64,000 nucleotides of DNA. Source: Trypanosoma brucei. Its lineage: Eukaryota. Below, one piece after another: positions 261 to 62,327 of the stretch (position 1 is the stretch's first letter; every line of letters starts with the position of its first letter). The DNA is taken from contig CP000066.1 of assembly GCA_000002445.1 (NCBI GenBank), positions 480,001 through 544,000 of the forward strand. Direction: 5' to 3'. The position numbers were made by a program, and so were the translations under genes. The notes beneath the pieces were generated by a model. It was given only the letters and a program-made list of their open reading frames with translations. It was not told where the DNA came from and did no database searches.

Positions 261-2048
261 CTAAGAACTCACATCAAGATTAAAGAACGGATGGCAAAGT
301 GCACTGGCTGCCGTCATACGTTGCCTCGGGTCTCGCTCGAAACAGCGCATAACAAAATCATTTAACACTGAAGGCCATGCCTCCGGATGCCGCAATGCTG
401 GGGACAAAAAATTCTCCTCCATGGCCATAAACGTAGCGGCTGGATCCCACACTGCGTACTCAAGCCCATTAAGCATTCTCAAAAGGACACAACCTACACT
501 CCACATATCGCAGGAGGCGGCGAAAGTTGCAACACGGTTGGCTTCATATCTGGGTTCAGCACTGGCAGATGCCCAATACACCTCAGGCGCCATTGTACTG
601 AAGTCGCCAAGTTGGGAAATGGGCGATCCGAGACGCTGCGCGAGGCCAAGGTCAGTCAGCACAACACGCGGAAAGGAAAAATCCTCCACCAAAACCTGTT
701 TAAGTGTTAGGGGTGATGAAAGAAGGCTCTCAGCGCCTGCATCACCAAATGGCCATGGTTTGGATAGGAGGATATTCTCCGCCTTCACATCAAGATGGCA
801 CAAGTTGCACACATTGTTGAGAAAGTAAAGCGCATGACATATGCTCCACGCTACGTGCTGGACCTCTCGCACAGTAAACAGCGTCCGAGGCGTAGCGCCA
901 GTACCTCCCGTGCCATCATGGGAAGGGAAGGGGCACCCCGTTGCGGATGAAACTTTATAAATCTCGCTGCGCTTATTAATACAGTCGCCTAGAGAAGTGG
1001 GATAGAGTTCTAGCGGGAAAAGCAACGCATCCCGCTTGATGCTGTACATTACGCTGCCAACGAGCTTTACTACAAAAAGTGAGCCCGTCAGAAAGGTACG
1101 CAGGACATGCAGACGCCCTTCTAACTCCGTTATGTTGTTCTTGATATGTGAAAGCTCGCTCTCATCGCCCTCCGTGCATTCCTCCGATACTCCTGCTGCT
1201 TGTCGTTTAAGCTGCTCCAACTCTCTTTCCACAGTCCGCACATCAGTTTCAAGTCGATGAGTTGCACTAGTTACCGTCTGAAGGGCACAACTTTCATCAA
1301 GAGTCCACTTTCCCTGAACGCGACTAATCTTAATGGCAACACGGCGGGCCTTAATGGATGCGCCCGTGGGAGTCCCATTCCATAGCACACAGTCGGAACC
1401 CTGATTACGACTTGTAGCAGTGCTATCAGCGCATACGCCATCCACTTCCACAACTGACTTCCGTTTGGCAGGGACGACAATCCCATAGTTTCCGCGACCT
1501 ATGTAACCTGTGAAGCTGCTGCCACACGTAGACGACAGTTGCCTCAGACTGAAACACGATTCAAGCTCTTGGTCACTTTTTAAAAATTCATACGGTGAAC
1601 TTTCCTCTTCGGGGAACATTTGCAACAATTGCGACGGAGTCGGTTCGATCTCTCGCTGGAGATCAAATTTACTGTCGTCGTCAGTTCTCGGACCGCTGCT
1701 TCCCCCCAAAGGAGCCTCGTCTCCTCCTTCATTTGTAACGGCTTCACCTCTTTTATATTCGTCACGGCCCCTCGCCATCGTATCAAATGGCAAAACGGCA
1801 CTACACGTACGGCTAAGGCCAAACTGTGCCATTGGTGGGGCACTCCACGTATGAATGAACTCCATGACATTTTTTGGACGGTTAATAACAATGTCGACGA
1901 GGAGGTTGTTAACAATATTCTGCGCACCGCTCTGATGCATCCAGCGGTCAATAGCCAAAGTGGGTTCTTTCTTATTTGCTTCATTGCTGGGATCGTTGCA
2001 GCCGTCCCCCGTAATTTTGTCCATCCCGGTAATTAAGTTCCCCCTCAT
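261..2048 (-). CDS. Atypical protein kinase (595 aa). It has an RIIa/DPY-30-like N-terminal motif and large insertions between the Gly-loop, beta3 Lys and the catalytic loop.
   Basis: Translation contains a Gly-loop IGRGNYGIV, beta3 VAIK, catalytic loop HLDVKAENILL (HRD replaced by HLD), DLG in place of DFG, APE (TMAPEVYW) and DMWSVGC. A roughly 100-aa coiled-coil insert replaces the helix-C region. The N-terminal stretch GAQNIVNNLLVDIVINRPKNVMEFIHTW resembles the RIIa dimerisation/docking consensus. ATG checked at 2046-2048 (reverse complement). Confidence 0.85.
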   Translation of the reverse strand: MRGNLITGMDKITGDGCNDPSNEANKKEPTLAIDRWMHQSGAQNIVNNLLVDIVINRPKNVMEFIHTWSAPPMAQFGLSRTCSAVLPFDTMARGRDEYKRGEAVTNEGGDEAPLGGSSGPRTDDDSKFDLQREIEPTPSQLLQMFPEEESSPYEFLKSDQELESCFSLRQLSSTCGSSFTGYIGRGNYGIVVPAKRKSVVEVDGVCADSTATSRNQGSDCVLWNGTPTGASIKARRVAIKISRVQGKWTLDESCALQTVTSATHRLETDVRTVERELEQLKRQAAGVSEECTEGDESELSHIKNNITELEGRLHVLRTFLTGSLFVVKLVGSVMYSIKRDALLFPLELYPTSLGDCINKRSEIYKVSSATGCPFPSHDGTGGTGATPRTLFTVREVQHVAWSICHALYFLNNVCNLCHLDVKAENILLSKPWPFGDAGAESLLSSPLTLKQVLVEDFSFPRVVLTDLGLAQRLGSPISQLGDFSTMAPEVYWASASAEPRYEANRVATFAASCDMWSVGCVLLRMLNGLEYAVWDPAATFMAMEENFLSPALRHPEAWPSVLNDFVMRCFERDPRQRMTAASALCHPFFNLDVSS

Positions 2049-3929: not shown

Positions 3930-6245
3930 TTATTTTTTACCCCCGTGCCCTTTTGTGGAACTGTCGCTGCCGGAGTGGTTATTGGCATTAACTGATGAAC
4001 CGCTACCACCAGGCGCACTGCTCCCAGACGAGGCGGAGGAATTTGAAGCTGTTGAGTGCGCACCGGCGTGCTGCGAAGATTGTCCACCGTTTCTTCCACT
4101 GGACGAGCGCTTCTTCAACATGCGCTCCGCCTCACGATCCGCCTTTTGTTTATTCCACGCTTCCTTTTTCTCTCGTAACATTTGCCGCACCCCTCGCCCC
4201 TCCAGCACGCGAGGTGTTGGTGGTGATGGAAAGATAACACTCCGACAGTTGCGGGTGCCACAACTGCATGCAAATGGCGGCATACGTTCGTCACATAACG
4301 TGGCATAATCCACGGTTAACTCCTCACCACTATTAATTGTCCGCTTAGAGACAAGCGTCAGCGTCCGGCCCTGCAAGAAATGCATATTGGGTTCACAAGA
4401 GTGACGAATTGCAACTGCCTGATGAAGGCGATCACCACGTAAAATCACACACCCCACCACTGGATCCTCTTCCCCAAGTTTATATACAGCCTGAGCAATA
4501 ACGGGAACAGTGTGGGCCGCATCACTGAAGAGCGCCTTGCCGGGCCGTACGGTTCGGCTCGCTTTACTCGAAAAATTTCCACGAGAATCGTGACTGATGA
4601 AGTACCATGGCCGCCTTGCCTTCTGCTCACGGACTGCGCGGTTCACTGCATTGTCCACAAAGCGGTCGTGATCCCATGATTTATCGCCCACCACCATCAA
4701 GTCCGCGAAGTCACCGCCATCCTTCTCGCTGTACCACATCCCACAGTTTGGGTTGATTTCCAAAAAGTATACATCACCTTTGGGGTCTATACGAAAGTCA
4801 ACACGGCCATATCCGACCCCGTTCATAATGTGTTGGAAAGCATTCCGGGCCATGTCAATAATCCGTGGGTAGGCCGGGTCATTATGAGGAAGAAAACTGC
4901 ATGCCTCATCGTTGCATTCCATGGACCACTTCTTGTCAAAATAGGCAAAGTCATCTTCATTTTGCAAAAAGTTAAACATTAAAGGCCTGAACACCTTGAC
5001 GCCATGCGGACTCCCGCTGTCGGCACATGCGAGAACGGTGCCCTCACGTCCTCGAATAAACTCCTCCACCAGAGCGTGATTGAACTCTTTCAGAAATGTT
5101 CCAACCTTCACTTTCAACTCGTCCAGAGTGTCACAACGGTTATCCTTGTTAATGCCAACAGAAGCGTAACCGGAAAGATGTTTCACGATGACAGGGAACC
5201 GCAGATGACGACATTTCTTCGCCAAACCTTCCGTTTTATCCAAAAGCACAAAGTTAGGTGTATTCACACCGGCCCCGGCAACAAGCACTTTCATATCAAT
5301 CTTGCTGGGTTCAAAACTGCGCGAGTCTGTGCCCGTAAATGCTGCGTTGTGCTCCTCCAGTGCCTCTAATACGTCGATACCAGCACGCTTCTCATCTTTA
5401 CCACCGTCACAAAGGTTAAAGAAAACGTCGAAGTTGTTTGAGGTTACCAATTCTCGCACCTGACGATAGGCATCATCTTTACGCACAGCAACTTCCGTGA
5501 AGGAGTACCTGTTCTTGTCCTTCCGCACCCTGTGAGCGGGGCTGCAGTGGTAATTGTCCATTTCCGCAGTGACAGAATTGGTCCCTTCGTAGCTGCTGTT
5601 GAGGACACATACGCGCAATTGCTTCTTTACGCTCGCCCTTCTCCTGCCTAGAGTTTGAGATACCACCATCCCAGTCGCCGATTTTGTGCAGTGGGAACCA
5701 TTAGCGGATGAAGAGCCCGTTGACATTGCTGTTGCTGTGTTCGTGGTCGATGCACCGGATCTATTCACCACTGACTTGGAAGAGGAAGCTTTTACTTTCT
5801 TCAGCCCAATCACATCTTCTTTTCCTTTTCTTGCTGACCTTCCCCGATTCGATCCCTGCCCTATTTCCACTGCTGTAGTCATCCCTGAGCTTTTACCTGA
5901 CGCACCACCGCCGTTACTCGTACCTGATGCACTCAACAGGGCTGCACTCTTCGTGCCGGGGTTAATGCCATTACCTCCAGGATGAGCGGATGTACCGACG
6001 GCGGCGGGAGGCACGGCGCCTCCAACTGTCAAACAACTTGAAGTACCACCACTTTTACTGCTCACAGAAGAGGCAGCACCACGGGATGGGAGAATAATAG
6101 TTGTGTTGGATGACTTCCATCGCAGGGTGTGAACAGTCACGCAACTCCACACAGCCACTGTTGGGGTTTTGGGTATTAATACATCTGCAAGGGGACATCG
6201 TAAGACTGAAGCCACACCAAAACGTCGAATTGCTATTCTGTACAT
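3930..6245 (-). CDS. ATP-grasp domain + SET-domain methyltransferase fusion protein (771 aa), with an Arg-rich N-terminal presequence-like segment and a Ser/Gly/Lys-rich C-terminal tail.
   Basis: ATP-grasp motifs: PVIVKHLSGYASVGI, LVEEFIRGREGTV, GYGRVDFRIDPKGDVYFLEINPNCGM. SET C-terminal motifs: RHSCEPN and GEELTVDY, followed by post-SET CSCGTRNC. ATG checked at 6243-6245 (reverse complement). Confidence 0.85.
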   Translation of the reverse strand: MYRIAIRRFGVASVLRCPLADVLIPKTPTVAVWSCVTVHTLRWKSSNTTIILPSRGAASSVSSKSGGTSSCLTVGGAVPPAAVGTSAHPGGNGINPGTKSAALLSASGTSNGGGASGKSSGMTTAVEIGQGSNRGRSARKGKEDVIGLKKVKASSSKSVVNRSGASTTNTATAMSTGSSSANGSHCTKSATGMVVSQTLGRRRASVKKQLRVCVLNSSYEGTNSVTAEMDNYHCSPAHRVRKDKNRYSFTEVAVRKDDAYRQVRELVTSNNFDVFFNLCDGGKDEKRAGIDVLEALEEHNAAFTGTDSRSFEPSKIDMKVLVAGAGVNTPNFVLLDKTEGLAKKCRHLRFPVIVKHLSGYASVGINKDNRCDTLDELKVKVGTFLKEFNHALVEEFIRGREGTVLACADSGSPHGVKVFRPLMFNFLQNEDDFAYFDKKWSMECNDEACSFLPHNDPAYPRIIDMARNAFQHIMNGVGYGRVDFRIDPKGDVYFLEINPNCGMWYSEKDGGDFADLMVVGDKSWDHDRFVDNAVNRAVREQKARRPWYFISHDSRGNFSSKASRTVRPGKALFSDAAHTVPVIAQAVYKLGEEDPVVGCVILRGDRLHQAVAIRHSCEPNMHFLQGRTLTLVSKRTINSGEELTVDYATLCDERMPPFACSCGTRNCRSVIFPSPPTPRVLEGRGVRQMLREKKEAWNKQKADREAERMLKKRSSSGRNGGQSSQHAGAHSTASNSSASSGSSAPGGSGSSVNANNHSGSDSSTKGHGGKK

Positions 6246-7183: not shown

Positions 7184-8053
7184 TCACAAGTCACCGAAGA
7201 AACTCGCGTCCTCTAAAAGTTTTCCAACGCGCACGTGGCCCATGAGAGGCGGTCCATCAGGGTCTTCCAAAGAAGCTCGATCTCCGCGCATCCATGTGAA
7301 TTTGAGCACCCTTGAAAAGTTTCTCCCCTCCCAGTTCTTGTTATCGAAGTTTTGTTCAGCGATGTAAACAAGTGAGGGCTGTCGACGCTCCTTCTTCAGT
7401 TCGCGAAGTGCCGCCTCTCCACCAGCAGCAGATACGTCATCTTCCACCTTCACAACCACGGCAACGTGACCGCGTGGAAAGTATGCCTTATAGTCCGAGT
7501 CCCATACCACAACATCGCCCACGAGCGGCGTGTGCCGCTTGCGCCTCTTCGTTGTCGTGACTTCCACCTTATTTTCGAAGTTAATCCGCTCGTATAGACG
7601 GTGCATCCCGCTTGAACCAAAAAACTTGAGGTTCTCCCAGTACAAATCGTGTCTGCTTCCACCGAAATAGACGAAAATTCCTCGGGTGTGTAAAAGGTAG
7701 CGAGCAACAAACTCATCCGCGGTCCAACACAACCCAGTTGGTGCTCGCTTCCACTCGGACCCATACGGCATTTTCTTCATCACTTCATGTGGATAACCAA
7801 TTGTAGTGTAGGCGTATGTCTCTGACAGCCAGTGGCGGTGGCAGTTGCTCATAGAAGGGACGTCTGAACTATAACCTACAACAGAGTCCATGGGAGCGTT
7901 GCAATGCTCAAGTGGGTTGAAATCCATATGCATCCCATGTCTCTTTGATTTCTGCGTGGATCCCCCACCGAGGAGAACGTAGACGAATAGAAAAAGCAGG
8001 AGAGTAGCCGGCACAGCGAGCTGAAACTTCTGTTTTCGGTTTAGAGACACCAT
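7184..8053 (-). CDS. Membrane-anchored CHAP-domain (glutathionylspermidine-amidase-like) cysteine amidase/peptidase, about 290 aa from the first ATG.
   Basis: N-terminal hydrophobic anchor LAVPATLLLFLFVYVLLGG. Catalytic Cys context GLCWTADEFVARYLLH matches the Gsp-amidase/trypanothione-synthetase amidase pattern C..EF..R.LL. His motif PRGHVAVVV. The ORF track extends to 8278 through a tat-repeat, translated as YYYY. The first ATG (MVSLNRK) was checked at 8051-8053 (reverse complement). Confidence 0.7.
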   Translation of the reverse strand: MVSLNRKQKFQLAVPATLLLFLFVYVLLGGGSTQKSKRHGMHMDFNPLEHCNAPMDSVVGYSSDVPSMSNCHRHWLSETYAYTTIGYPHEVMKKMPYGSEWKRAPTGLCWTADEFVARYLLHTRGIFVYFGGSRHDLYWENLKFFGSSGMHRLYERINFENKVEVTTTKRRKRHTPLVGDVVVWDSDYKAYFPRGHVAVVVKVEDDVSAAGGEAALRELKKERRQPSLVYIAEQNFDNKNWEGRNFSRVLKFTWMRGDRASLEDPDGPPLMGHVRVGKLLEDASFFGDL

Positions 8054-8403
8054 TTGTGGCGTGATTTGTTGATTCGCGTCCTTTACAAAATAATAATAAT
8101 AACAATACCAATGCCAATGCCAATAAGGTTTTATAGCCCTCCCGTGAAAGGATGGAAGAAAGATAGAAAGAAGAGCATTGACAGAAACGTGCCAACAGGA
8201 AAGAACCCGATCATCGGACACACAGAATGTACCGCTGAAGCGATATAGTAGGTAAAAAGTGCGAGACACAAATGGCAAAAAAAATTTTCAAAGTTCGTAT
8301 GATGGGAAAAGGTGTAAAACATGTGAAATCCTCCCCACATTCATCTGATTATTGCGCCGTACATCAGACCAGTAGACTGCCGCCGATTTTCTCCACGCAC
8401 CAA

Positions 8404-13733: not shown

Positions 13734-16337
13734 TTATGCTTCATCTTCTATCTCATCTTCACCTGTGCCAGACGCACGGGCAACATCATTCCCACTAAGT
13801 TCTTCGCTCCCAATAGAGGAAGATGATGAAGAAGCGTTCTTTCGACCTTTGGATACGCTAGAGCTTGACCGAGACGTCCTTTTACTGCTCGATTCTTTGG
13901 ACGATGCACCATCCGCTGAGTCCTTCGCCGCGTCGGCACCGGACGCCTCATCCACAGCCTCGCTCTTTACCGCATCAGAATCTAGCTCATCTACATCCTG
14001 ATCGTTAACATGTTCGTCCTCTACAACCTGTTGCACAGCCTCACCCTTTTCAGATGATGGCGATCTCTCCAGTTCGTCGCCGTACTCGAACTTATCCCCC
14101 TCCAGTTTAGCGGATGATTCGGATTTCTTCGATGATGAGCGGGACTGCTCCGACTCGGTATCTTTCTTTTCAGATGTCTGGGACTTGTCAAGCTCCTCAG
14201 TGTATTCATCCTTCTGTTCATCATCCTCAGGCTTCTTCGATGATGAGCGGGACCGCTCCGACTCGGTATCTTTCTGATCCTCAGCCTCGGTATCTTTCTT
14301 TTCAGATGTCTGGGACTTGTCAAGCTCCTCAGTGTATTCATCCTTCTGTTCATCATCCTCAGGCTTCTTCGATGATGAGCGGGACCGCTCCGACTCGGTA
14401 TCTTTCTGATCCTCAGCCTCGGTATCTTTCTTTTCAGATGTCTGGGACTTGTCAAGCTCCTCAGTGTATTCATCCTTCTGTTCATCATCCTCAGGCTTCT
14501 TCGATGATGAGCGGGACTGCTCCGACTCGGTATCTTTCTTTTCAGATGTCTGGGACTTGTCAAGCTCCTCAGTGTATTCATCCTTCTGTTCATCATCCTC
14601 AGGCTTCTTCGATGATGAGCGGGACCGCTCCGACTCGGTATCTTTCTGATCCTCAGCCTCGGTATCTTTCTTTTCAGATGTCTGGGACTTGTCAAGCTCC
14701 TCAGTGTATTCATCCTTCTGTTCATCATCCTCAGGCTTCTTCGATGATGAGCGGGACCGCTCCGACTCGGTATCTTTCTGATCCTCAGCCTCGGTATCTT
14801 TCTTTTCAGATGTCTGGGACTTGTCAAGCTCCTCAGTGTATTCATCCTTCTGTTCATCATCCTCAGGCTTCTTCGATGATGAGCGGGACCGCTCCGACTC
14901 GGTATCTTTCTGATCCTCAGTGTCAGGATCCTTCTTTCCGGACTCGGAGGCTTCAAATTCGTCACCATAATCATTCTTGGTTGTATCAGCAGTTGGTTCA
15001 TCATCCGTCTTGTCTGCATCATCCTTCGTCAGTTCCTCAGGCTTCTTCGATGATGAGCGGGACCGCTCCGACTCGGTATCTTTCTGATCCTCAGTGTCAG
15101 GATCCTTCTTTCCGGACTCGGAGGCTTCAAATTCGTCACCATAATCATTCTTGGTTGTATCAGCAGTCGGTTCATCATCCGTCTTCTCTCGTCCTTCCCT
15201 GCCGGATCTCTCAGACTTCCTTGACGATGGTCGAGAACGGTCAGATTGAGTGTCCTTCCCATCTTCAGCATCGGTGGTGTCCTGTTGCATCGCTTTTTGA
15301 CTGGCGCTTGCAGATGCAGAGGACGGGCGAGCAGCAGATGCAGGACGGCTATTGCCACCATCCTTCAAAATTTCCTTGCTCGTCGACTGCTCTGTCGAGG
15401 CTGGTTGCGGAGATGCTGTAGAAGGTCTGCTTTCCCTCTTAGCTTCGCTGGGTTGCGCCACACTTGATGTAGAACCCTTCCCAGTTGCAGAGTCTTCCGC
15501 GACTGATGATGAAATTGGGGCCTCGTCTTCGGTCACAGCACCGTGCTTACTGCTTTCAGTTAACCCTCCACCGGACTTCCGGCCGCCAACGGGAGAAGCG
15601 GCTCCTTTGCCCTTCTGTGGTGTGGCGGGTCGGGAAGAGTCCGAATTTAGAGTTTCTCTAATGGTCTTGAGTAATATATTCTTGGGAGGGGACGAAGTTT
15701 TGCCCTTTCCCTGACTGCTGCAGGCACCCGGTCGGCCACCTCGTTGGCCCACTGTATCAGGACGCTTTTGTTTGGGTGGCTTAGGAACTGTCGCCACGGC
15801 GCGTTTCTTGGATCCAGTAGCTCTACTCGACACAGTACGTTGACGCTTCTTCGCAACTTCTTTTCTACCCGATGTAGTCTCTTTCGGGCTGGTCAACTCC
15901 TCGGCCTCAACACGCCTCTGCGTAGCGAATCCCGTCCGGCATGCGAGTTCCTCCAACTCCCTCTGGCGCCGTTCCTCAAATCGCCGGCGAGCCACTTCAC
16001 GCCGATGTTGCTCCAACCGCTTCTGCCGCCTCATCTCTTCCCGGCGCTCGGCCGTTTCACGGATCAACATCTCCCTTCGGGCCCAGTAAGGTGCAAGGTA
16101 TGGATCTTCCAAATCGTTATACGGAGGAAGACTTTGGTCTTGTAGTGGCCCAAGTGTGAATTCTGTTTCTAGGAAGCGCTGAGCGGACTGTGGGCGTAGA
16201 TTACTGTTTACTGTAGATCTTGGTGTAACAACACACAAAGCATTGGTAGCAGCCGGACCATGTGACGCGTAGACGCCCACTCGAGCTGCCTCACCGCCGC
16301 GAGATGAACTCTCCAGTGGGGGGAGCGACTTCGACAT
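13734..16337 (-). CDS. Highly acidic Ser/Glu/Asp/Lys-rich tandem-repeat protein (867 aa) with an RR/EE coiled-coil C-terminal region.
   Basis: One continuous ORF runs from unique N-terminal sequence through six 44/36-aa repeats (KKPEDDEQKDEYTEELDKSQTSEKKDTEAEDQKDTESERSRSSS) and two 58-aa repeats into a unique C-terminal region (RREEMRRQKRLEQHRREVARRRFEERRQRELEEL). ATG checked at 16335-16337 (reverse complement). Confidence 0.8.
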   Translation of the reverse strand: MSKSLPPLESSSRGGEAARVGVYASHGPAATNALCVVTPRSTVNSNLRPQSAQRFLETEFTLGPLQDQSLPPYNDLEDPYLAPYWARREMLIRETAERREEMRRQKRLEQHRREVARRRFEERRQRELEELACRTGFATQRRVEAEELTSPKETTSGRKEVAKKRQRTVSSRATGSKKRAVATVPKPPKQKRPDTVGQRGGRPGACSSQGKGKTSSPPKNILLKTIRETLNSDSSRPATPQKGKGAASPVGGRKSGGGLTESSKHGAVTEDEAPISSSVAEDSATGKGSTSSVAQPSEAKRESRPSTASPQPASTEQSTSKEILKDGGNSRPASAARPSSASASASQKAMQQDTTDAEDGKDTQSDRSRPSSRKSERSGREGREKTDDEPTADTTKNDYGDEFEASESGKKDPDTEDQKDTESERSRSSSKKPEELTKDDADKTDDEPTADTTKNDYGDEFEASESGKKDPDTEDQKDTESERSRSSSKKPEDDEQKDEYTEELDKSQTSEKKDTEAEDQKDTESERSRSSSKKPEDDEQKDEYTEELDKSQTSEKKDTEAEDQKDTESERSRSSSKKPEDDEQKDEYTEELDKSQTSEKKDTESEQSRSSSKKPEDDEQKDEYTEELDKSQTSEKKDTEAEDQKDTESERSRSSSKKPEDDEQKDEYTEELDKSQTSEKKDTEAEDQKDTESERSRSSSKKPEDDEQKDEYTEELDKSQTSEKKDTESEQSRSSSKKSESSAKLEGDKFEYGDELERSPSSEKGEAVQQVVEDEHVNDQDVDELDSDAVKSEAVDEASGADAAKDSADGASSKESSSKRTSRSSSSVSKGRKNASSSSSSIGSEELSGNDVARASGTGEDEIEDEA
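14107..14905. repeat. Tandem array of six in-frame coding repeats (four of 132 nt, two of 108 nt) plus a partial unit.
   Basis: The motif tctttcttttcagatgtctgggacttgtcaagctcctcag... recurs at 14161, 14293, 14425, 14533, 14665 and 14797. That gives periods of 132, 132, 108, 132 and 132 nt, with near-perfect identity between units. Confidence 0.9.
14855..15200. repeat. Two tandem copies of a 174-nt (58-aa) coding repeat adjacent to the 132-nt array.
   Basis: ggtatctttctgatcctcagtgtcaggatccttctttccggactcggaggcttcaaattcgtcaccataatcattcttggttgtatcagcag occurs at 14901 and again at 15075. Confidence 0.8.
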
Positions 16338-45008: not shown

Positions 45009-47249
45009 CTATTTTTCACTGGGCGCTGAGGCCCGTCTTGAGTCCGACACATTGCTACTACTCCGGAGTCGTTTTACTGCTCCCCCACGGCTACTAACCA
45101 CGCTTTGATTCTTATCCTTCATTGAAAGCCGCCGTGTTTGGGTGTCTGGCAGTGTTGTAGATGTGTCATTACGCAGAGATGCAGAGGCAGAGGCAGAGGC
45201 TGCTGCACAAACGGCATTGGAAGACTGTGACGAGGTGGAAGGGCGGAGTGGGGGCATGTTACCAATCTGTAAAAAGGCTCCCAAAGAAGCGCCAGTAGCC
45301 GAAACCCTCAGTGCCTCATTTATTTGTTGCAGTGATCCAGCCACCTCATCGTTCATCTCAAGGTCGGTGAAAATGTCCTTACTGCTCTCAACCGCCGCAC
45401 GACAGGCATTTTGCAGAGCATGACGGAATGGCAACACATCAGCGGGTGTCGGTAACTTTGTAGTCATTGAAATACTATCTTCGTATAGACGTTGTTCGCA
45501 CTCGAGCTCATCATCTAAAATCATCTGTTCCCTCACATACGCTGACAGGGTCTCCTGTAGTTGTGATTTAAGTCGCTCCTGCACACCCTCTAAAGAAGCA
45601 CGACGGCGTTTCTGAAGTGAATGAACTGCGGCAACATGTTTCTGCGTCATTGCCACAATGTTTTGTCCGAGGGAAGCAAAGTTCTCGTTGATACGTACAA
45701 CGCAACGCGCCATGTCATCCTCGTACTGCCGTGTGGACACACCAAATGTGCTTCCCCTCTTCCTCCCCTCACTTCCCTCTTCTGCGTTGCCCTTCGATCC
45801 CTCGTCACGGCATTCATCGTCACCCTCCTCCACCTGTCCCATCAGCGTGTCGAGTCTCCATTGCTCAAGCCGCTGAAACACCGCCTCCGTACCACGTTTT
45901 GCGGTGTTGTGGGCGTCACGCACTGCATCCTGCACAACCAACTGGAGTGTGCCAACCTGGGAGTCAAACTTCAGAAGGGCCTCGTGGTACACCTGTTTAA
46001 AGCGGACCAACTCTTCCTCCTTCTCCTCTATCATCGCCTTCAGTACACTGGTTTGCGAATCAGTGATATGTTGGAGACCTTCATTTTCCCGCCGCTCCTT
46101 CAGCAACGTATCCACATTTGATTTTAGCTCAGTATATTCCTCCTCCAGTTGCTGGTACCGTTCGTGGTCCTCGCGAGAAATATAGTAACCGCCCCGCTCC
46201 GCTACGCGCTCCTGGAGGCGGTTGCGTAGCCGCTGGTTTTCAGCTTCGAAGGAACGGAGACGAATCATCAACTTCTCCCGTTCAGTGTTTGCCTGGTTTC
46301 GAATGGACCGGGCCTTCACTGCGTACATAAGAGTCGACTTGGTTTCTTCAATGTCCCGGCCGACGGAAGAAATGCATGCGATCATGAGAGTCCGCGCACT
46401 GCCACCGATGGAGTCCCGCAAGATCTCTGTTAACTTGGAGTCCCGGTACGGCACGTGATTTGGCCGTGTTGTGTCGTTAGAGTTTGAAAGCGCAAGAAAC
46501 ACATTTTTTAGCGCTAACAATGATTTGTTGATCTTTCCCGTTTCGCCCGCAGCCGCCCCACTAGCGTGAGATTTCTTTAAACTCTCACTACCCGCAAGAT
46601 CCACCATGAACAAGTGGGTTACATCCACACTGTTGGTGTACTCGTTAAACTCTTCGTAGTCGACTATTATAACGACGTGGGAGCGGCTGCTCCGCTCATT
46701 CATGAGAGTCGACGCAATGTGACGGCGGCTTAATCCCTTCTGAATTGCCGCAAATGCATCGGCGACCCGTGATAACGTCAACTTCTCGTTGGATACCGGA
46801 AACCCACCAACAAGCGTCACCTCTGTTTCTCCATCCTTACTGAGCATGTCAATCAGTTTCTCATTGTATATTTCTATCATGGAAAGTGTGAGTGCGCACT
46901 GCGCCCCTTCAACTGTCCTTTGCTGCACGTGCTCAAGCATGGAGCCGATCATACGGTGGGCAATACCACTCGATCCTCCAGCTCCACCTAACATAGTAAA
47001 CGTCTTCCCCGTCCCAGTCTGTCCGTACACCATTACAGTGCCATGTAATCCATCCTTCACGCTCTGTAGAATGGGCTCACATATGGCATAGACATCGTCC
47101 TGCGTAGCAGTGGGGGGAAATATATAGTCCGGGTCGTAACTTTTGTTGTCCAACATGACACGCCTTCCATTGACGAAGCTGAGGCCAGCCGCAGGGCGCT
47201 CACTCTCAAATAGTGGCCGACAGCGAACTGCCACCTTAATGTTGCTCAT
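45009..47249 (-). CDS. Kinesin with an N-terminal motor domain (746 aa from the first ATG) and coiled-coil stalk.
   Basis: MSNIKVAVRCRPL, GQTGTGKTF (P-loop), SSRSH (switch I), VDLAGSE (switch II), HVPYRDSKLT. The ORF-track start at 47303 is a TTG. The ATG was checked at 47247-47249. Confidence 0.9.
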   Translation of the reverse strand: MSNIKVAVRCRPLFESERPAAGLSFVNGRRVMLDNKSYDPDYIFPPTATQDDVYAICEPILQSVKDGLHGTVMVYGQTGTGKTFTMLGGAGGSSGIAHRMIGSMLEHVQQRTVEGAQCALTLSMIEIYNEKLIDMLSKDGETEVTLVGGFPVSNEKLTLSRVADAFAAIQKGLSRRHIASTLMNERSSRSHVVIIVDYEEFNEYTNSVDVTHLFMVDLAGSESLKKSHASGAAAGETGKINKSLLALKNVFLALSNSNDTTRPNHVPYRDSKLTEILRDSIGGSARTLMIACISSVGRDIEETKSTLMYAVKARSIRNQANTEREKLMIRLRSFEAENQRLRNRLQERVAERGGYYISREDHERYQQLEEEYTELKSNVDTLLKERRENEGLQHITDSQTSVLKAMIEEKEEELVRFKQVYHEALLKFDSQVGTLQLVVQDAVRDAHNTAKRGTEAVFQRLEQWRLDTLMGQVEEGDDECRDEGSKGNAEEGSEGRKRGSTFGVSTRQYEDDMARCVVRINENFASLGQNIVAMTQKHVAAVHSLQKRRRASLEGVQERLKSQLQETLSAYVREQMILDDELECEQRLYEDSISMTTKLPTPADVLPFRHALQNACRAAVESSKDIFTDLEMNDEVAGSLQQINEALRVSATGASLGAFLQIGNMPPLRPSTSSQSSNAVCAAASASASASLRNDTSTTLPDTQTRRLSMKDKNQSVVSSRGGAVKRLRSSSNVSDSRRASAPSEK

Positions 47250-47335
47250 CTCTTTGCTCTCTTGCCTGTTTGACACACCACCCGCTGCTGTGCCTTCTGA
47301 CAAGACACGTTAAACAGTGTTTACCAACATGTCGG

Positions 47336-49309: not shown

Positions 49310-52300
49310 TCATGACTGCATCGCCTTCACTGCAGCAGACACCAAACCCTGCAGTGCCTGAGCCTCCGTGCACAAACGCTTGCATTCCTCCCCACGCTGC
49401 TGGTGTATCCCCTCCTCAAGGGACTTACAAATTGAATCTACTTTAGGTTTGATACGCTGCTCCATTATTGTTTGCAATGCACGGCGGTCCTTTTTCTGCA
49501 TTTCCACAGACCTCTTGAGAAAGCTGATCTCTGCGTCCTTTCCACGGACGTCTTCGCCCTTTGCATCATTCAACCTGGTGAGCAACTCCGATATCTCATT
49601 ATCCCTCTCCTGCAGCGTGCGGCGCCACTCCTCTTCACGTTTCGAGTGAGCACTACGCAAGTCGAGCAACTGCGCCTCCAACGACTGAACTGCAGTGGCT
49701 GAAGCAAATCTCTCTTCTGGTGAAGAGGCAGGGTTCAACTCAACACCCTTGAAACCAGTGTCAGGATTTGAAGAGGCGCCGACGTGAGTTTCCCCTTTAC
49801 ATGCATCCGCAGCGCACTCCACTGCCCTCTCCACGCTACGCTTCGCCTCGCCTGCCACGTGATCCTGAAGCAACTTCAGCGCTACACAGACTTCGCTAAG
49901 CTCCTCCCGTTGCAGTGCAGACGTGCAGTATTCTAAGGCTTTCTGAGATTCAACACGCATGACGTCTATCTCGCCAGACAAATGCAAAAGTTTCTCCTCT
50001 TTCTCCGCTAATTGTCGCCGCAACATCTCTATTGAGCCCTCATAAGCTTTGCGTACCGTCTCTTGTTGTCCGTCGAAGTACCGCCGGGTGTACGAAATGG
50101 CCTCCAGCGCCTCTGGCAACTGCTGAGCCCTTGACGCATCCATTAACCTACCAAGGGTGCTGTAATCTTTTCTTAGTGCAAGCAACTGCAATTCCTTGTC
50201 CTTCACGGCGTGCGAAAGTTTCCCGAAGTAACTGCTCACCTGCTGGTGGGCAATTCTTTCAACAGCTTCCTGTACAACTTTCGCCAACTGGTCCTTCAGA
50301 CCACCGGTCACATACGTCTCTGCTGCTTCCCTCCGCGACTCCGTGTCCAGTTGTGGTGCCACAACCTCCTGAATTTTAGTGTGATTGAATGTCAGTAGCT
50401 CCAATATCTTCTCATCTGGTGGTAGCAACACCGAGGGATTGGTGTCCGATCGGTACCACATATCGGTACCACTTCCATCACGACGCGGCTTCGGCACACG
50501 AAGACGTCGCAGGCAGTTTTCCGCCTCCTCCCTTGAAAGAGCAGTGGAGGATTTGCCAACTCCTTCACCAGGGGAAACCAGCGGCGGCACCGAGTCATTC
50601 GCACTTTCCGTTAACCCTTCAGAGCTTTCACGAGTGCTTAACTCTTCCTTCAAATTCCGAATAATTTCATCTCTTTCACTGAGCTTCGACGTAAGGTCCA
50701 CAACAATATCCCTGTGTTTGACGAGCAACTCGTTATACCGGCTCAGCATCGCCTCCTCTTGAAGCACCTGCCATTGGTGGTGAATCTCCTCAAGACCAAG
50801 CATATATTCCTCTGGGTCGACGTGCTCTTCACAGCCGCCATTGCCAGCTTCATTCCCTCTGCTATCACGTAGAATCGCTTCTAGTTCCTCCAGTCGCCGT
50901 TGCAGCTGCATGCGAACAGCTTGCTCGTGTTGATGAGCACACAGAGACCTTTGCAGTGCTTCCACAACCTCCTCACGCTCCTCCTCCGCACGGCGGACAC
51001 TCTGCTGCAACTCTGACAGGAGCCCAACATCTAACCCCTGCTGTGACTGCAGTTGCATCGCATCTTGCTGCCCCGGTAGAGACCGCTGCCTCTCGTGCTG
51101 GGTGTCTTCATTAATAACGGCGGTATTTCGTATGTTTTTGGCGCGATTGGCAAACAAAAGTGTTGAGAGAGTTTCCGCATGGGACTCCAGAGCAGGTGAA
51201 ATACACACAATGAGAGTGGTCTTACAGTTACCGCCAAGGGAGTCCCGCAGCACACTCGTGAGCACAGAATTTCTGAAGGGAACATGGGAACTACGCGATG
51301 CACCACCGTCCTTGTTGTCTTTTCCACAACTCTTCCGTTGAGCTAGTGCCGAAATGACGTTGCCGAGTTCGTGTAAGGATTTGTTAATACACCTCGCCTC
51401 CTCCAGTCGTTGCCCGCTTACGCCTGATTGTCGTACCTTCTCGCTCCCGGCAAGGTCCACAATGTTCAACTTTCCCACGCGGTGAGAAGATACCGAACCA
51501 GTTACCGGGTCCTTTTTTACAGTTTCCACCGTAAGGATGAAAATGGCGTGTGAGCGAGAGGACAATTCGCTCATGCGGGTTGCTTCCGTGGCACGTCTTG
51601 AGGTACCGCGCTCCATAAGGTAATACACGTCCCGTGGACTACACACATTCCATTCCGAGAGGCCATCAACATGAACACCGCTCCGCGTTGTGTGCCGCAC
51701 CACCAACGACCGTGGTGCCTCCTCCCCCGGTGGCTTTAATAAATCAGATATAACCTCATTGTATATTTGCATATACGACGCTCGGATGGTGTAATCCACA
51801 TTGCCACACCGACTATCGTCCATAATACTGAAGATTTCCTCTACAGCACGGGCAATGATGCCATGCTGCTCCTCTCCAGCAAACCCCTCCATTGTGTATG
51901 TTTTTCCCGCACCCGTCTGCCCATACGCCAACAAGGTAGCGTTATAACCCTCCACGACGGATAGGACGGCACTACGGGCACTCCGCTCATACACATCCCG
52001 TTGCAGATCATATCTGTCGTGCACGTAATCAAACGTAAAGGTTTGTGTCGCGTAAACTTCTGCAAAGCAACCACTAGCTTTGTTGTCATCGCTATTGTCA
52101 CTCAGATCAACTGGTTCGCACAATGTAATGGACGATCGATCCTTGGAAACACGCACAACATCAGTGTACCGGCTGTTTTCCTTGAGCTCACGCGGTAGCG
52201 GAGGGCGTACACGTATCACAACCGTTATGTTTGATTCACTATCGCCATTTGGAGTGAATGGAGTTGCACTGACACGGGTAGATTTTGAAGTCTCAGACCC

Positions 52301-52528
52301 GAAGCCCCAGCTCACAGATTGGGATGCGAATTGGCCGTCAGCACCACTACGCTGTATGGTTTTGTCATTAGTACTACACCCAGAGCAGTGATGTGTCATC
52401 ATCGCCGGCACAAGTGGCGGAGATGTGTCGTTAAAAACTACTCGCGCACGACGCCGCCCCTCCTCCCGTTGAGGCATCCCCGGTATTGATTGTCCACTTG
52501 AACCTGTAAAACACGCGGAAGTGTTCAT
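49310..52528 (-). CDS. Kinesin with an internal motor domain (residues about 100-470) and a long coiled-coil tail (1072 aa).
   Basis: ITVVIRVRPPL, GQTGAGKTYTM, SSRSHAIF, VDLAGSEK, HVPFRNSVLT. The following 600 aa are heptad-rich. ATG checked at 52526-52528 (reverse complement). Confidence 0.9.
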   Translation of the reverse strand: MNTSACFTGSSGQSIPGMPQREEGRRRARVVFNDTSPPLVPAMMTHHCSGCSTNDKTIQRSGADGQFASQSVSWGFGSETSKSTRVSATPFTPNGDSESNITVVIRVRPPLPRELKENSRYTDVVRVSKDRSSITLCEPVDLSDNSDDNKASGCFAEVYATQTFTFDYVHDRYDLQRDVYERSARSAVLSVVEGYNATLLAYGQTGAGKTYTMEGFAGEEQHGIIARAVEEIFSIMDDSRCGNVDYTIRASYMQIYNEVISDLLKPPGEEAPRSLVVRHTTRSGVHVDGLSEWNVCSPRDVYYLMERGTSRRATEATRMSELSSRSHAIFILTVETVKKDPVTGSVSSHRVGKLNIVDLAGSEKVRQSGVSGQRLEEARCINKSLHELGNVISALAQRKSCGKDNKDGGASRSSHVPFRNSVLTSVLRDSLGGNCKTTLIVCISPALESHAETLSTLLFANRAKNIRNTAVINEDTQHERQRSLPGQQDAMQLQSQQGLDVGLLSELQQSVRRAEEEREEVVEALQRSLCAHQHEQAVRMQLQRRLEELEAILRDSRGNEAGNGGCEEHVDPEEYMLGLEEIHHQWQVLQEEAMLSRYNELLVKHRDIVVDLTSKLSERDEIIRNLKEELSTRESSEGLTESANDSVPPLVSPGEGVGKSSTALSREEAENCLRRLRVPKPRRDGSGTDMWYRSDTNPSVLLPPDEKILELLTFNHTKIQEVVAPQLDTESRREAAETYVTGGLKDQLAKVVQEAVERIAHQQVSSYFGKLSHAVKDKELQLLALRKDYSTLGRLMDASRAQQLPEALEAISYTRRYFDGQQETVRKAYEGSIEMLRRQLAEKEEKLLHLSGEIDVMRVESQKALEYCTSALQREELSEVCVALKLLQDHVAGEAKRSVERAVECAADACKGETHVGASSNPDTGFKGVELNPASSPEERFASATAVQSLEAQLLDLRSAHSKREEEWRRTLQERDNEISELLTRLNDAKGEDVRGKDAEISFLKRSVEMQKKDRRALQTIMEQRIKPKVDSICKSLEEGIHQQRGEECKRLCTEAQALQGLVSAAVKAMQS

Positions 52529-61019: not shown

Positions 61020-62327
61020 CTACTCTGGGTCTTTACTCGACCGGGAGGACAAAAGCCGCGGCATAGCTAAGTCAACAAAATGCCCATCGGACGCAAAAAA
61101 TCCCCCTTGAATATCTTTCCCACGGTCCGCAACACCATTAGAATTTTCCCGTCGCTTCTTGCTTTTAGTTACTAGTGGTGACATGGGTTGAGATAACCCC
61201 TCCAGCTCCGTGACATAGGAGAAAAGGTCCGCCATGTCCATCATACCAAACTTTGGATCTGCTGTTCCCGATTGTCTCTCAAGCGAGCCCGGGCCCGACC
61301 CCGACCTGCTGTTGCTACATGCGTTTGCACCTGAGAGAGAAAGACTCCCTTTTGCGCGTTTCATCTTATTTGGGCTTGGTATATCAACGAGCCATCGATG
61401 CGAAAGAAGCTCTCTTGCACTCGGACGAAGGGCCGGATCCCGTACAAAACAAAGATCTAAAAAGTCTTGCAACAGGGGAGACCCCTCGCAGTTGACTGGA
61501 AGGCGGGGTGATCCTGAGTTATTTGATACTATCGCAAATAGCACCGCAGCAGGATTTTTCATATTCCCCCCAAACGGCTTCCTTCCACTTATCATCTCGT
61601 ATACGGTAACACCTAAACTCCACACATCCGCTGCTGTTGTGTAGCTACTTTCCCCCTTATTATCATTGTTGCTCCTATAATCAAAGTCACCGCCACCGGC
61701 ATCGGGGGAGTCATCGGTGTCATTTGGTACATTCCTATCGCTATCGACAACTTCCGGAGCCATATACCATGGTGTTCCCACCGTTGTGTGCATCCCGACA
61801 GTATCATCGATGAGTTTACTCACACCAAAATCTGTTAACTTGCAGCGACCATCCGCGGTGATAAGAACATTGGCGGGTTTGATGTCCCTATGACAAATAC
61901 GGGCAGTATCATGCAGATACGCGAGCCCCTCTAGCAAGTCACGAGCATACGACCGCACTACATTCTCACGTAAGGATCCCTGCCGTCTAATGATCCCGTC
62001 CAATGACCCGCCGTTCACGTACTCCATTATTATCTCTACACCCACTGCGCTACGGCGTGCGCCATAATACGTAACGAGGTTTGGGTGTTGCACCCGTTCC
62101 ATCAGATGAATCTCCTGCAAAATCGCTCGCATGTCGTCGGAGATAACAGGAGGTTCCTGAGGAAATGCATCTCCCCCATCCCCACCTTCCGGTGCGACAA
62201 CACCACCGTCGTACAGAGGAATTTCCTTCACGGCAACGAAACAACCTTTTTCCTCATCGTAACCCTCGTAAACGACACCTCTCGCCCCAACGCCTAACTT
62301 GCGATTCGTCCTACGAATGTTCTCCAT
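61020..62327 (-). CDS. Protein kinase, STE-group-like (MAP3K/MEKK-like), with acidic insertions (435 aa).
   Basis: GVGARGVVYEG, VAVKEI, HRDIKPANVLI, DFGVS, GTPWYMAPEV, DVWSLGVTVYEM. ATG checked at 62325-62327 (reverse complement). Confidence 0.85.
   Translation of the reverse strand: MENIRRTNRKLGVGARGVVYEGYDEEKGCFVAVKEIPLYDGGVVAPEGGDGGDAFPQEPPVISDDMRAILQEIHLMERVQHPNLVTYYGARRSAVGVEIIMEYVNGGSLDGIIRRQGSLRENVVRSYARDLLEGLAYLHDTARICHRDIKPANVLITADGRCKLTDFGVSKLIDDTVGMHTTVGTPWYMAPEVVDSDRNVPNDTDDSPDAGGGDFDYRSNNDNKGESSYTTAADVWSLGVTVYEMISGRKPFGGNMKNPAAVLFAIVSNNSGSPRLPVNCEGSPLLQDFLDLCFVRDPALRPSARELLSHRWLVDIPSPNKMKRAKGSLSLSGANACSNSRSGSGPGSLERQSGTADPKFGMMDMADLFSYVTELEGLSQPMSPLVTKSKKRRENSNGVADRGKDIQGGFFASDGHFVDLAMPRLLSSRSSKDPE

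Follow-up and report, generated by a model that had tools for sequence, protein, structure and literature searches.

A divergent non-RD kinase gene of Trypanosoma brucei with a probable N-terminal docking module of the RIIa/DPY-30 type

The locus and its gene

A stretch of 64,000 nucleotides of the Trypanosoma brucei genome (contig CP000066.1, positions 480,001 to 544,000; hereafter the window, to which all nucleotide positions refer) was analyzed with a focus on the protein kinase gene Tb927.3.1850. This gene encodes a catalytic core of the non-RD type, in which the arginine before the catalytic aspartate is replaced, and a probable N-terminal docking module of the RIIa/DPY-30 type. Both recur together in a family of proteins from kinetoplastids, diplonemids, and euglenids. 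The features of the gene are listed below in the order of the protein. Identities are to orthologues, and pLDDT (predicted local distance difference test) values refer to the AlphaFold 2 (AF2) model described in the following section.

261-2048, minus strand: whole open reading frame (ORF), 595 amino acids plus stop, T. brucei Tb927.3.1850
1839-1955, minus strand: amino acids 32-70, probable RIIa/DPY-30-type docking/dimerisation module, AIDRWMHQSGAQNIVNNLLVDIVINRPKNVMEFIHTWSA, conserved family-wide
1650-1838, minus strand: amino acids 71-133, disordered and unconserved linker carrying the published phosphosite Ser117
1509-1649, minus strand: amino acids 134-180, conserved pre-kinase extension with the family motif (R/E)PT-x-x-L-x-x-x-FP
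1482-1499, minus strand: amino acids 184-189, Gly-rich loop GRGNYG; G186, Y188, and G189 invariant
1350-1451, minus strand: amino acids 200-233, disordered, lineage-specific insert between beta2 and beta3, 6% identity
1329-1337, minus strand: amino acids 238-240, beta3 motif A-I-K; A238 and K240 invariant, K240 being the ATP-anchoring lysine
1080-1307, minus strand: amino acids 248-323, helix C and antiparallel helical hairpin; W248 and E252 invariant
873-947, minus strand: amino acids 368-392, loop between helix D and helix E, low confidence (block-mean pLDDT 59-78), poorly conserved
774-797, minus strand: amino acids 418-425, catalytic loop HLDVKAEN, non-RD; catalytic Asp420, Lys422, and Asn425
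672-758, minus strand: amino acids 431-459, variable insert between catalytic loop and beta8, 13% identity
582-653, minus strand: amino acids 466-489, activation segment from DLG to APE, with the family signature Q-L-G-D-F at 479-483
264-581, minus strand: amino acids 490-595, remaining C-lobe, including the motifs D514-x-W-x-x-G and CFERD..R577

The ORF was identified as Tb927.3.1850 because the gene-specific parts of the published RNA interference (RNAi) primers for this gene map inside it (window 1786-1805 and 1382-1402), because its residue 117 is a serine, in agreement with the published phospho-Ser117, and because its neighbours in the window fit chromosome 3 (SLBP, NOT5, and a second kinase with Ser344 as in Tb927.3.2060). 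In the homologue search, the 595-residue sequence was 100% identical to a T. equiperdum protein, and the 595-residue proteins of T. brucei TREU927 and T. b. gambiense fell into the same 90%-identity cluster. The T. brucei ORF is longer at its N-terminus by about 20 residues and has a second methionine at position 9; its true start is therefore uncertain. The orthologues from T. rangeli and T. cruzi (P0003, P0004, and P0006; alignment A1, columns ~50-60) begin with MGDEWC... or MGEEC..., where Gly2 and the nearby Cys could constitute a candidate N-acylation motif. A start of this type is missing from the T. brucei and T. theileri proteins.

The gene itself and its kinase nature were already known. 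Tb927.3.1850 was listed as an 'Orphan' eukaryotic protein kinase whose knockdown did not reduce the fitness of bloodstream forms, with Alamar-blue ratios of 1.03 and 1.01 and the entry 'No LOF' (loss of fitness) in RNAi target sequencing (RIT-seq) (Jones et al. 2014). RNAi ratios of at least 1 were also reported for culture and mice (Fernandez-Cortes et al. 2017), and the protein was placed under CMGC, with pS117 found in vivo (Nett et al. 2009, PMC2716717). In the main-text literature, the gene was encountered in two kinome lists only, and no paper discussing the protein itself was found. Accession searches of the literature retrieved nothing, the supplement of the Leishmania kinome paper did not contain the gene, and no localisation data were found in the literature searched.

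Kinase core and N-terminal block

The Pfam family Pkinase (PF00069) was matched with 70.3 bits (cut-off 31.7, E = 2.3e-19), the match being limited to the C-lobe (amino acids 388-589, profile positions 92-263). The sequence is divergent: only 48 of 1.84 billion representative proteins were retrieved at E < 1e-10 in an exhaustive HMMER search. Conservation was assessed in an alignment of 16 homologues with identity down to 25%. An earlier note on this DNA, made from its sequence alone, had described a recognisable but highly atypical kinase core of non-RD and DLG type. The first part of this description was borne out. Residues H418, L419, D420, K422, and N425 were invariant in 16 of 16 aligned homologues and throughout the family proteins surveyed; thus, H, D, K, and N of the HRDxKxxN motif are kept and R is replaced by an invariant L (HLD). 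DLG is likewise present (466-468), but it does not characterize the family, whose members carry L, F, Y, C, or W in the middle of the motif.

The activation segment, which ends with APE at 487-489, contains ten further invariant positions, i.e. D466, G468, Q471, Q479, L480, G481, D482, M486, P488, and E489, and the remaining C-lobe another four (D514, W516, G519, and R577). The position of the usual T-loop phosphosite, S478, was variable across the family. This fits a non-RD kinase that would not be switched on via T-loop phosphorylation, and non-RD kinases are generally not activated through phosphorylation of the activation loop. The first glycine of the Gly-rich loop is missing in some distant family members (GHYG). 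Upstream of this loop, the pre-kinase extension formed a helix (138-144) and was modelled with pLDDT of 84-98 over about amino acids 131-160. Its motif was present in all family members, L141 was invariant, and the extension is probably packed on the N-lobe.

The invariance of HLD, K422, N425, D466, G468, K240, E252, and APE among 16 homologues at identities as low as 25% indicates that these features of the core did not arise by chance. A pseudokinase reading was rejected on the grounds that the catalytic residues are all kept, with the beta3 lysine K240, the catalytic aspartate D420, and the DFG aspartate D466 invariant. Both HxD with L for R and DLG for DFG are found in active kinases. Judged from its conserved residues, Tb927.3.1850 is most probably an active kinase.

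For the fold, an AF2 model based on a 75-sequence alignment (pLDDT 78, predicted template modelling score, pTM, 0.75) replaced a run with nine sequences (pLDDT 51). The kinase fold of this model is complete and includes helix C. Beta3 (237-243) is followed by a helix at 249-287, a return helix at 295-323, and then beta4 and beta5; both helices were modelled with pLDDT of 90-97. E252 lies in the first turns of the helix 249-287, within the family motif W-x-L-D-E and 12 residues from K240, a Lys-Glu spacing close to that in STE20 kinases. With an invariant glutamate in the helix right after beta3, helix C is present and extended into a hairpin. The proposal of the earlier note that a coiled coil of about 100 residues replaces helix C was therefore rejected: helix C begins at 249, immediately behind beta3, and the region from beta3 to the catalytic loop is lengthened by two separate elements, a helix-C extension of ~60 residues (hairpin 249-323) and a D/E loop of ~25 residues (368-392). 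Pfam coiled-coil matches on the hairpin (CENP-Q and TMF_TATA_bd, E = 0.1-0.2) were dismissed as generic coiled-coil noise.

Trypanosoma sequences have a long hairpin in the alignment, that of other kinetoplastid-like members is shorter, and P0023-P0028 have none; Q-rich expansions occur in the turn of the hairpin in T. theileri and T. melophagium. The earlier note had correctly counted about 30 extra residues between the Gly-rich loop and the beta3 lysine. The spacing from G189 to K240 is 51 residues, whereas about 17-20 are typical, which leaves ~30 additional residues between beta2 and beta3. This insert had pLDDT below 50 over 211-232 and was missing in P0024, P0025, and P0027. The insert between catalytic loop and beta8 ranged from 0 to more than 150 residues across the family. 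Like the other inserts, the hairpin is a lineage-specific addition.

At the N-terminus, the peptide highlighted by the earlier note as following the RIIa/DPY-30 consensus was located at amino acids 41-68. The block around it was modelled as a leading helix (32-39), helix I (42-56), a turn at Pro58, and helix II (61-69), with pLDDT of 89-94. N-terminal blocks align readily across the family, and Pro58 was invariant in 23 of 23 aligned blocks. In Pfam scans, RIIa (PF02197) was the only family matched in all three scans of Trypanosoma sequences; one additional weak, unrelated match appeared when a 130-residue fragment was scanned alone, and Dpy-30 (PF05186) gave no match for the T. brucei sequence. 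RIIa scored 13-15.6 bits with the T. brucei sequence (the range depending on the fragment scanned), 18.6 bits with the Trypanosoma consensus, and 23.9 bits with the homologue P0027, which passes the curated threshold of 22.4 bits and whose block alone yielded E = 8.6e-7. RIIa was also the most-matched Pfam family in sets of N-terminal blocks (6 of 8, 8 of 14, and 12 of 23). Among the 23 blocks, two matched Dpy-30 and two Tex55, and no competing family exceeded two.

When a profile of the 23 blocks was compared with all sequences of the PDB, 15 matches were obtained, of which 12 are docking/dimerisation domains. These include FAP385 (E = 1.1e-4), EFCAB10 (E = 0.006), RI-alpha of protein kinase A (PKA; E = 0.009) and several longer RI-alpha chains, an 'RIIa domain-containing protein', SP17, and ROPN1L. 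The docking domains were aligned in register on the conserved proline and the hydrophobic positions. A reversed-sequence control gave four matches against the PDB (best E = 0.45), none of them a docking domain. The block thus very probably belongs to the RIIa/DPY-30 superfamily, as the earlier note had suggested; for T. brucei, membership follows from homology within the family and not from the score of its own sequence. The closest subtype appears to be the one with a leading helix (RI-alpha, FAP385/AK8, EFCAB10, and DPY-30). We also noted two weak docking-profile matches under unexpected names: the chains 8fuy_A (amino acids 18-41) and 8u2w_A (amino acids 136-159), named glucose-6-phosphate dehydrogenase and acetyl-CoA synthetase, share an RIIa-like stretch of 24 residues, DTILDNLREQVLDKKPDDVLKFIS.

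The linker following the block had pLDDT below 50 for residues 74-129 and 14% identity to orthologues. In the model, the putative docking module is an independent unit on a predicted disordered linker of ~60 residues, which is phosphorylated at S117.

The family, its relatives, and the surroundings of the gene

The exhaustive search revealed second and third tiers of proteins with the same HLD...QLGDF kinase, and nearly all full-length proteins of this type begin with the docking block. It was kept in 26 full-length family proteins and, in one further case, occurred just upstream in another frame. Neither of the two outcomes named by the earlier note as refuting its reading, a complete lack of RIIa/Dpy-30 profile matches or orthologues devoid of the N-terminal segment, was thus observed, a single complete member excepted. 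The block profile scored 49-69 bits in the full-length proteins carrying the block, whereas none of the window's ORFs and none of about 120 other kinases scored above 5 bits. Family-wide, the predicted docking module and the kinase domain thus co-occurred. The syntenic orthologue P0018 seemed to be without the block. Loss of the N-terminus was rejected in this case as a frame or gene-call artefact, given that the block lies immediately upstream in another frame (42.9 bits). On the kinetoplastid-like contig L003, docking block (1188-1470) and kinase (1465-2664) are found in different frames and were called as two genes; this split reflects either an assembly frameshift or a truly split or decaying gene.

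Family members were found in (i) Trypanosoma (the brucei group, cruzi, rangeli, conorhini, grayi, theileri, and melophagium); (ii) the prokinetoplastids Apiculatamorpha and Papus; (iii) the diplonemids Diplonema papillatum and Lacrimia; and (iv) the euglenids Euglena gracilis, Rhabdomonas, Entosiphon, and Ploeotia. At the level of sequence, the putative docking module together with the HLD kinase defines a family across kinetoplastids, diplonemids, and euglenids. Word-indexed searches with the N-terminal half or a diverse family alignment were saturated by generic kinases and missed known orthologues; they were therefore not used as evidence of absence. On two contigs, a Steroid_dh gene comes after the kinase, and the genes there are packed densely on one strand with polypyrimidine-rich spacers between them; the gene order agrees with what we take to be the neighbour in T. 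brucei, Tb927.3.1840.

A Foldseek comparison with the PDB placed PAK6, TNIK, PAK3, MST1, PAK4, and TAO3 at the top (E ~1e-13, target TM score 0.68-0.78); CLK3, SRPK1, and LAMMER kinases followed the STE20 kinases at ranks ~39-42. Among named sequences outside the family, MAP4K6, STK4, myosin-III, and PAK2 came nearest, with weak similarity (about 80 bits, 14-20% identity). CLK3 was the top PDB sequence match, through three short stretches only (E = 2e-10). The closest solved folds and named sequences are thus those of the STE20 group (PAK, MST1/2, TNIK/MAP4K, and TAO), and the members from Diplonema and Papus are auto-annotated as STK4- or STK3-like. Unlike in this group, HLD is found instead of HRD, subdomain VIII follows the pattern QLGDFxxMAPE, the inserts are large, and the N-terminal module has a different fold; MST1/2 use SARAH, a helical module for dimerisation and scaffold docking. 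The T. brucei protein reads QLGDFSTMAPE in subdomain VIII, together with the HLD loop, and so departs from the STE20 signature GTPxWMAPE. Published kinome lists likewise keep Tb927.3.1850 outside the group, as 'Orphan' or, in the earlier one, 'CMGC'. On sequence and predicted fold, we class the family as an orphan lineage, STE20-like but without the STE20 subdomain-VIII signature.

Further features were noted elsewhere in the window. Immediately upstream of Tb927.3.1850, and transcribed in the same direction, lies a gene for an unusual fusion protein of ATP-grasp and SET domains. These and the other features are as follows:

3930-6245, minus strand: 771-residue protein with an ATP-grasp domain (D-Ala-D-Ala-ligase-like, E = 1.9e-15) and a C-terminal SET domain (E = 1.1e-7)
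7184-8278, minus strand: 364-residue ORF matching CHAP (amidase/peptidase; 28.8 bits, cut-off 26), a mostly bacterial domain; the listed start is TTG, the true start probably a downstream ATG
13734-16337, minus strand: 867-residue ORF without Pfam match, containing tandem repeats at 14125-15189
45009-47303 and 49310-52528, minus strand: tandem pair of kinesin-motor genes (E = 6e-78 and 2e-102)
61020-62327, minus strand: second, conventional protein kinase of 435 residues (Pkinase, E = 3.8e-62), with a serine at residue 344 that fits the published pS344 of Tb927.3.2060 (STE group)

The repeats at 14125-15189 are 98-100% identical, with periods of 108, 132, and 174 nt and compound periods of 240 and 372. 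This region has a strongly negative local AT skew (-0.32), and both of its strands carry long, overlapping ORFs.

A possible role as an anchored kinase

From these observations we infer dimerisation, helix docking, and regulation by anchoring. The reading that we favour, with reasonable though limited confidence, is that of a catalytically competent non-RD Ser/Thr kinase from an orphan, STE20-like family of Euglenozoa, which would be controlled by dimerisation and anchoring. A four-helix bundle would arise when the docking module pairs with either a second copy of itself or a similar module on a partner protein, and the groove of this bundle would bind an amphipathic helix of a scaffold protein. 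The kinase might then be controlled mainly by the site of tethering and by dimerisation rather than by T-loop phosphorylation; control by location fits a non-RD kinase without a conserved activation-loop phosphosite. Possibly, the hairpin on helix C provides an extra interaction surface or a lever on this helix. By analogy with known docking domains, we consider it fairly probable that the protein works through dimerisation and helix docking.

Such an arrangement recalls the anchoring of PKA by A-kinase anchoring proteins (AKAPs), which likewise serves to position a protein kinase. Shared with the docking/dimerisation domain of PKA are the N-terminal helix-turn-helix of ~40 residues, the proline in the turn, and the hydrophobic pattern. 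The leading extra helix is shared with RI-alpha, and RI-alpha and RI-beta chains of this domain were matched in register by the block profile. On the other hand, the module resides here on the catalytic polypeptide itself, no cyclic-nucleotide-binding regulatory subunit is involved, and the kinase does not belong to the AGC group; in addition, the T. brucei block is sub-threshold for Pfam and has a shorter helix II. Trypanosome PKA is presumably cAMP-independent, with an R subunit that has no docking domain. The family also resembles other non-RD kinases in the replacement of the arginine before the catalytic Asp (HLD, invariant) and in having no conserved phosphosite in the activation loop. 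This likeness says nothing on ancestry because non-RD denotes a property and not a family.

Enzymes with a terminal docking module are also known from radial spokes (AK8/FAP385-EFCAB10, AK7/AK9-EFCAB5, and RSP23/NDK5). AK8 is held in the radial-spoke neck, where its N-terminal docking domain pairs with EFCAB10 and packs on RSPH3 (PMC11779644; PMC12399478), and AK7 and AK9 use DPY30 domains on CFAP91 with EFCAB5 as partner (PMC11779644). For the terminal RIIa/DPY30 domains of all three, an amphipathic helix provided by RSPH3 or CFAP91 serves as the docking site of the partner dimer (PMC11779644). FAP385, whose sequence is like the N-terminus of AK8, and EFCAB10 were the two best solved profile matches. 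Unlike Tb927.3.1850, these enzymes are nucleotide kinases and not protein Ser/Thr kinases, and our protein is absent from the solved-structure chains. A flagellar anchor is plausible because the best matches are radial-spoke docking modules, which is not evidence of location; we regard it as a tentative and rather doubtful proposition. A scaffold in the axoneme (radial spoke) or the paraflagellar rod is speculative. An AKAP-style anchored kinase used throughout Euglenozoa, tethered to the flagellum at the radial-spoke neck (in the position of AK8/FAP385-EFCAB10) or at the Euglenozoa-specific paraflagellar rod and supplying local, PKA-like phosphorylation, would be a further step, which we consider improbable as a whole.

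Several observations weigh against our interpretation. The T. brucei sequence (E = 0.013-0.08) and even the Trypanosoma consensus remained below the RIIa cut-off of 22.4 bits. Only positions 2-29 of the 38 in the RIIa model were matched, and helix II is short in Trypanosoma, with about nine residues followed by a Pro-rich stretch. One complete family member, P0025, is without the docking module. No named Leishmania orthologue and no named Crithidia member were found in the homologue searches, and Herpetomonas was reported to be without an orthologue (PMC6872171). The absent RNAi defect of bloodstream forms in culture and mice points to no process. Neither the supplements of the TrypTag paper nor those of the axoneme-asymmetry paper contained Tb927.3.1850, and in the PDB sequence search the protein was not among the chains of solved structures, axoneme entries included.

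The N-terminal module could also act as a homodimeriser only, so that the kinase is trans-activated as by SARAH in MST1/2 and no scaffold is docked. In favour of this, the nearest relatives of the kinase belong to the STE20/MST group, the literature searched yielded neither a localisation nor an anchoring partner, and RIIa/DPY-30 modules are obligate dimerisers (PMC11779644). However, the matched solved cases (FAP385, EFCAB10, PKA RI-alpha, SP17, and ROPN1L) all also dock an amphipathic helix, and trans-autophosphorylation would be of little use to a non-RD kinase whose T-loop phosphosite is not conserved, so that we consider pure homodimerisation unlikely. Considerably less probable still is a pseudokinase or scaffold whose divergent core is no longer catalytic and which acts via binding alone. 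The restriction of the Pfam alignment to the C-lobe, the retrieval of only 48 among 1.84 billion representative proteins at E < 1e-10, the loss of the first glycine of the Gly-rich loop in some distant members, and RNAi without phenotype would all fit this idea. It is difficult to reconcile with the family-wide invariance of K240, E252, D420, K422, N425, D466, and APE and with a complete predicted fold having helix C in place, and HLD- and DLG-type motifs are known from active kinases.

Finally, the likeness to RIIa/DPY-30 may be convergent or due to chance, the block being a family-specific helical hairpin that packs on its own kinase as an intramolecular regulator. Statistics are inherently weak for a domain of ~40 residues (best PDB E = 1e-4), and single Trypanosoma sequences score sub-threshold. 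Yet the PDB matches were in register on proline and hydrophobic positions and almost all docking domains, the reversed-sequence control was negative, one family member exceeded the curated Pfam threshold, and a disordered, unconserved linker of ~60 residues separates the block from the kinase. Convergence or chance is thus very improbable, and an anchored, dimerising kinase remains the reading that we prefer.

Three points appear not to have been described in the searchable literature: the presence of a docking module, the family that it defines across Euglenozoa, and the anatomy of helix C as revised here. For twenty years, the gene has been listed in trypanosome kinomes as a nameless orphan without phenotype. 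The combination of a putative docking module with an invariant non-RD loop, from euglenids to trypanosomes, provides a testable hypothesis of a kinase regulated by anchoring. Anchored PKA is of a known kind, as are enzymes with a terminal RIIa/DPY-30 module; the presence of such a module on a Ser/Thr kinase's own chain appears to be new, and a protein kinase that bears its own module, instead of borrowing that of a regulatory subunit, would represent an unusual solution to targeting. The family may also serve as a handle for AKAP-like scaffolds in organisms whose PKA, as we take it, does not use them. Should the anchor prove flagellar, the family would be relevant to the regulation of the flagellar beat in an important group of parasites.

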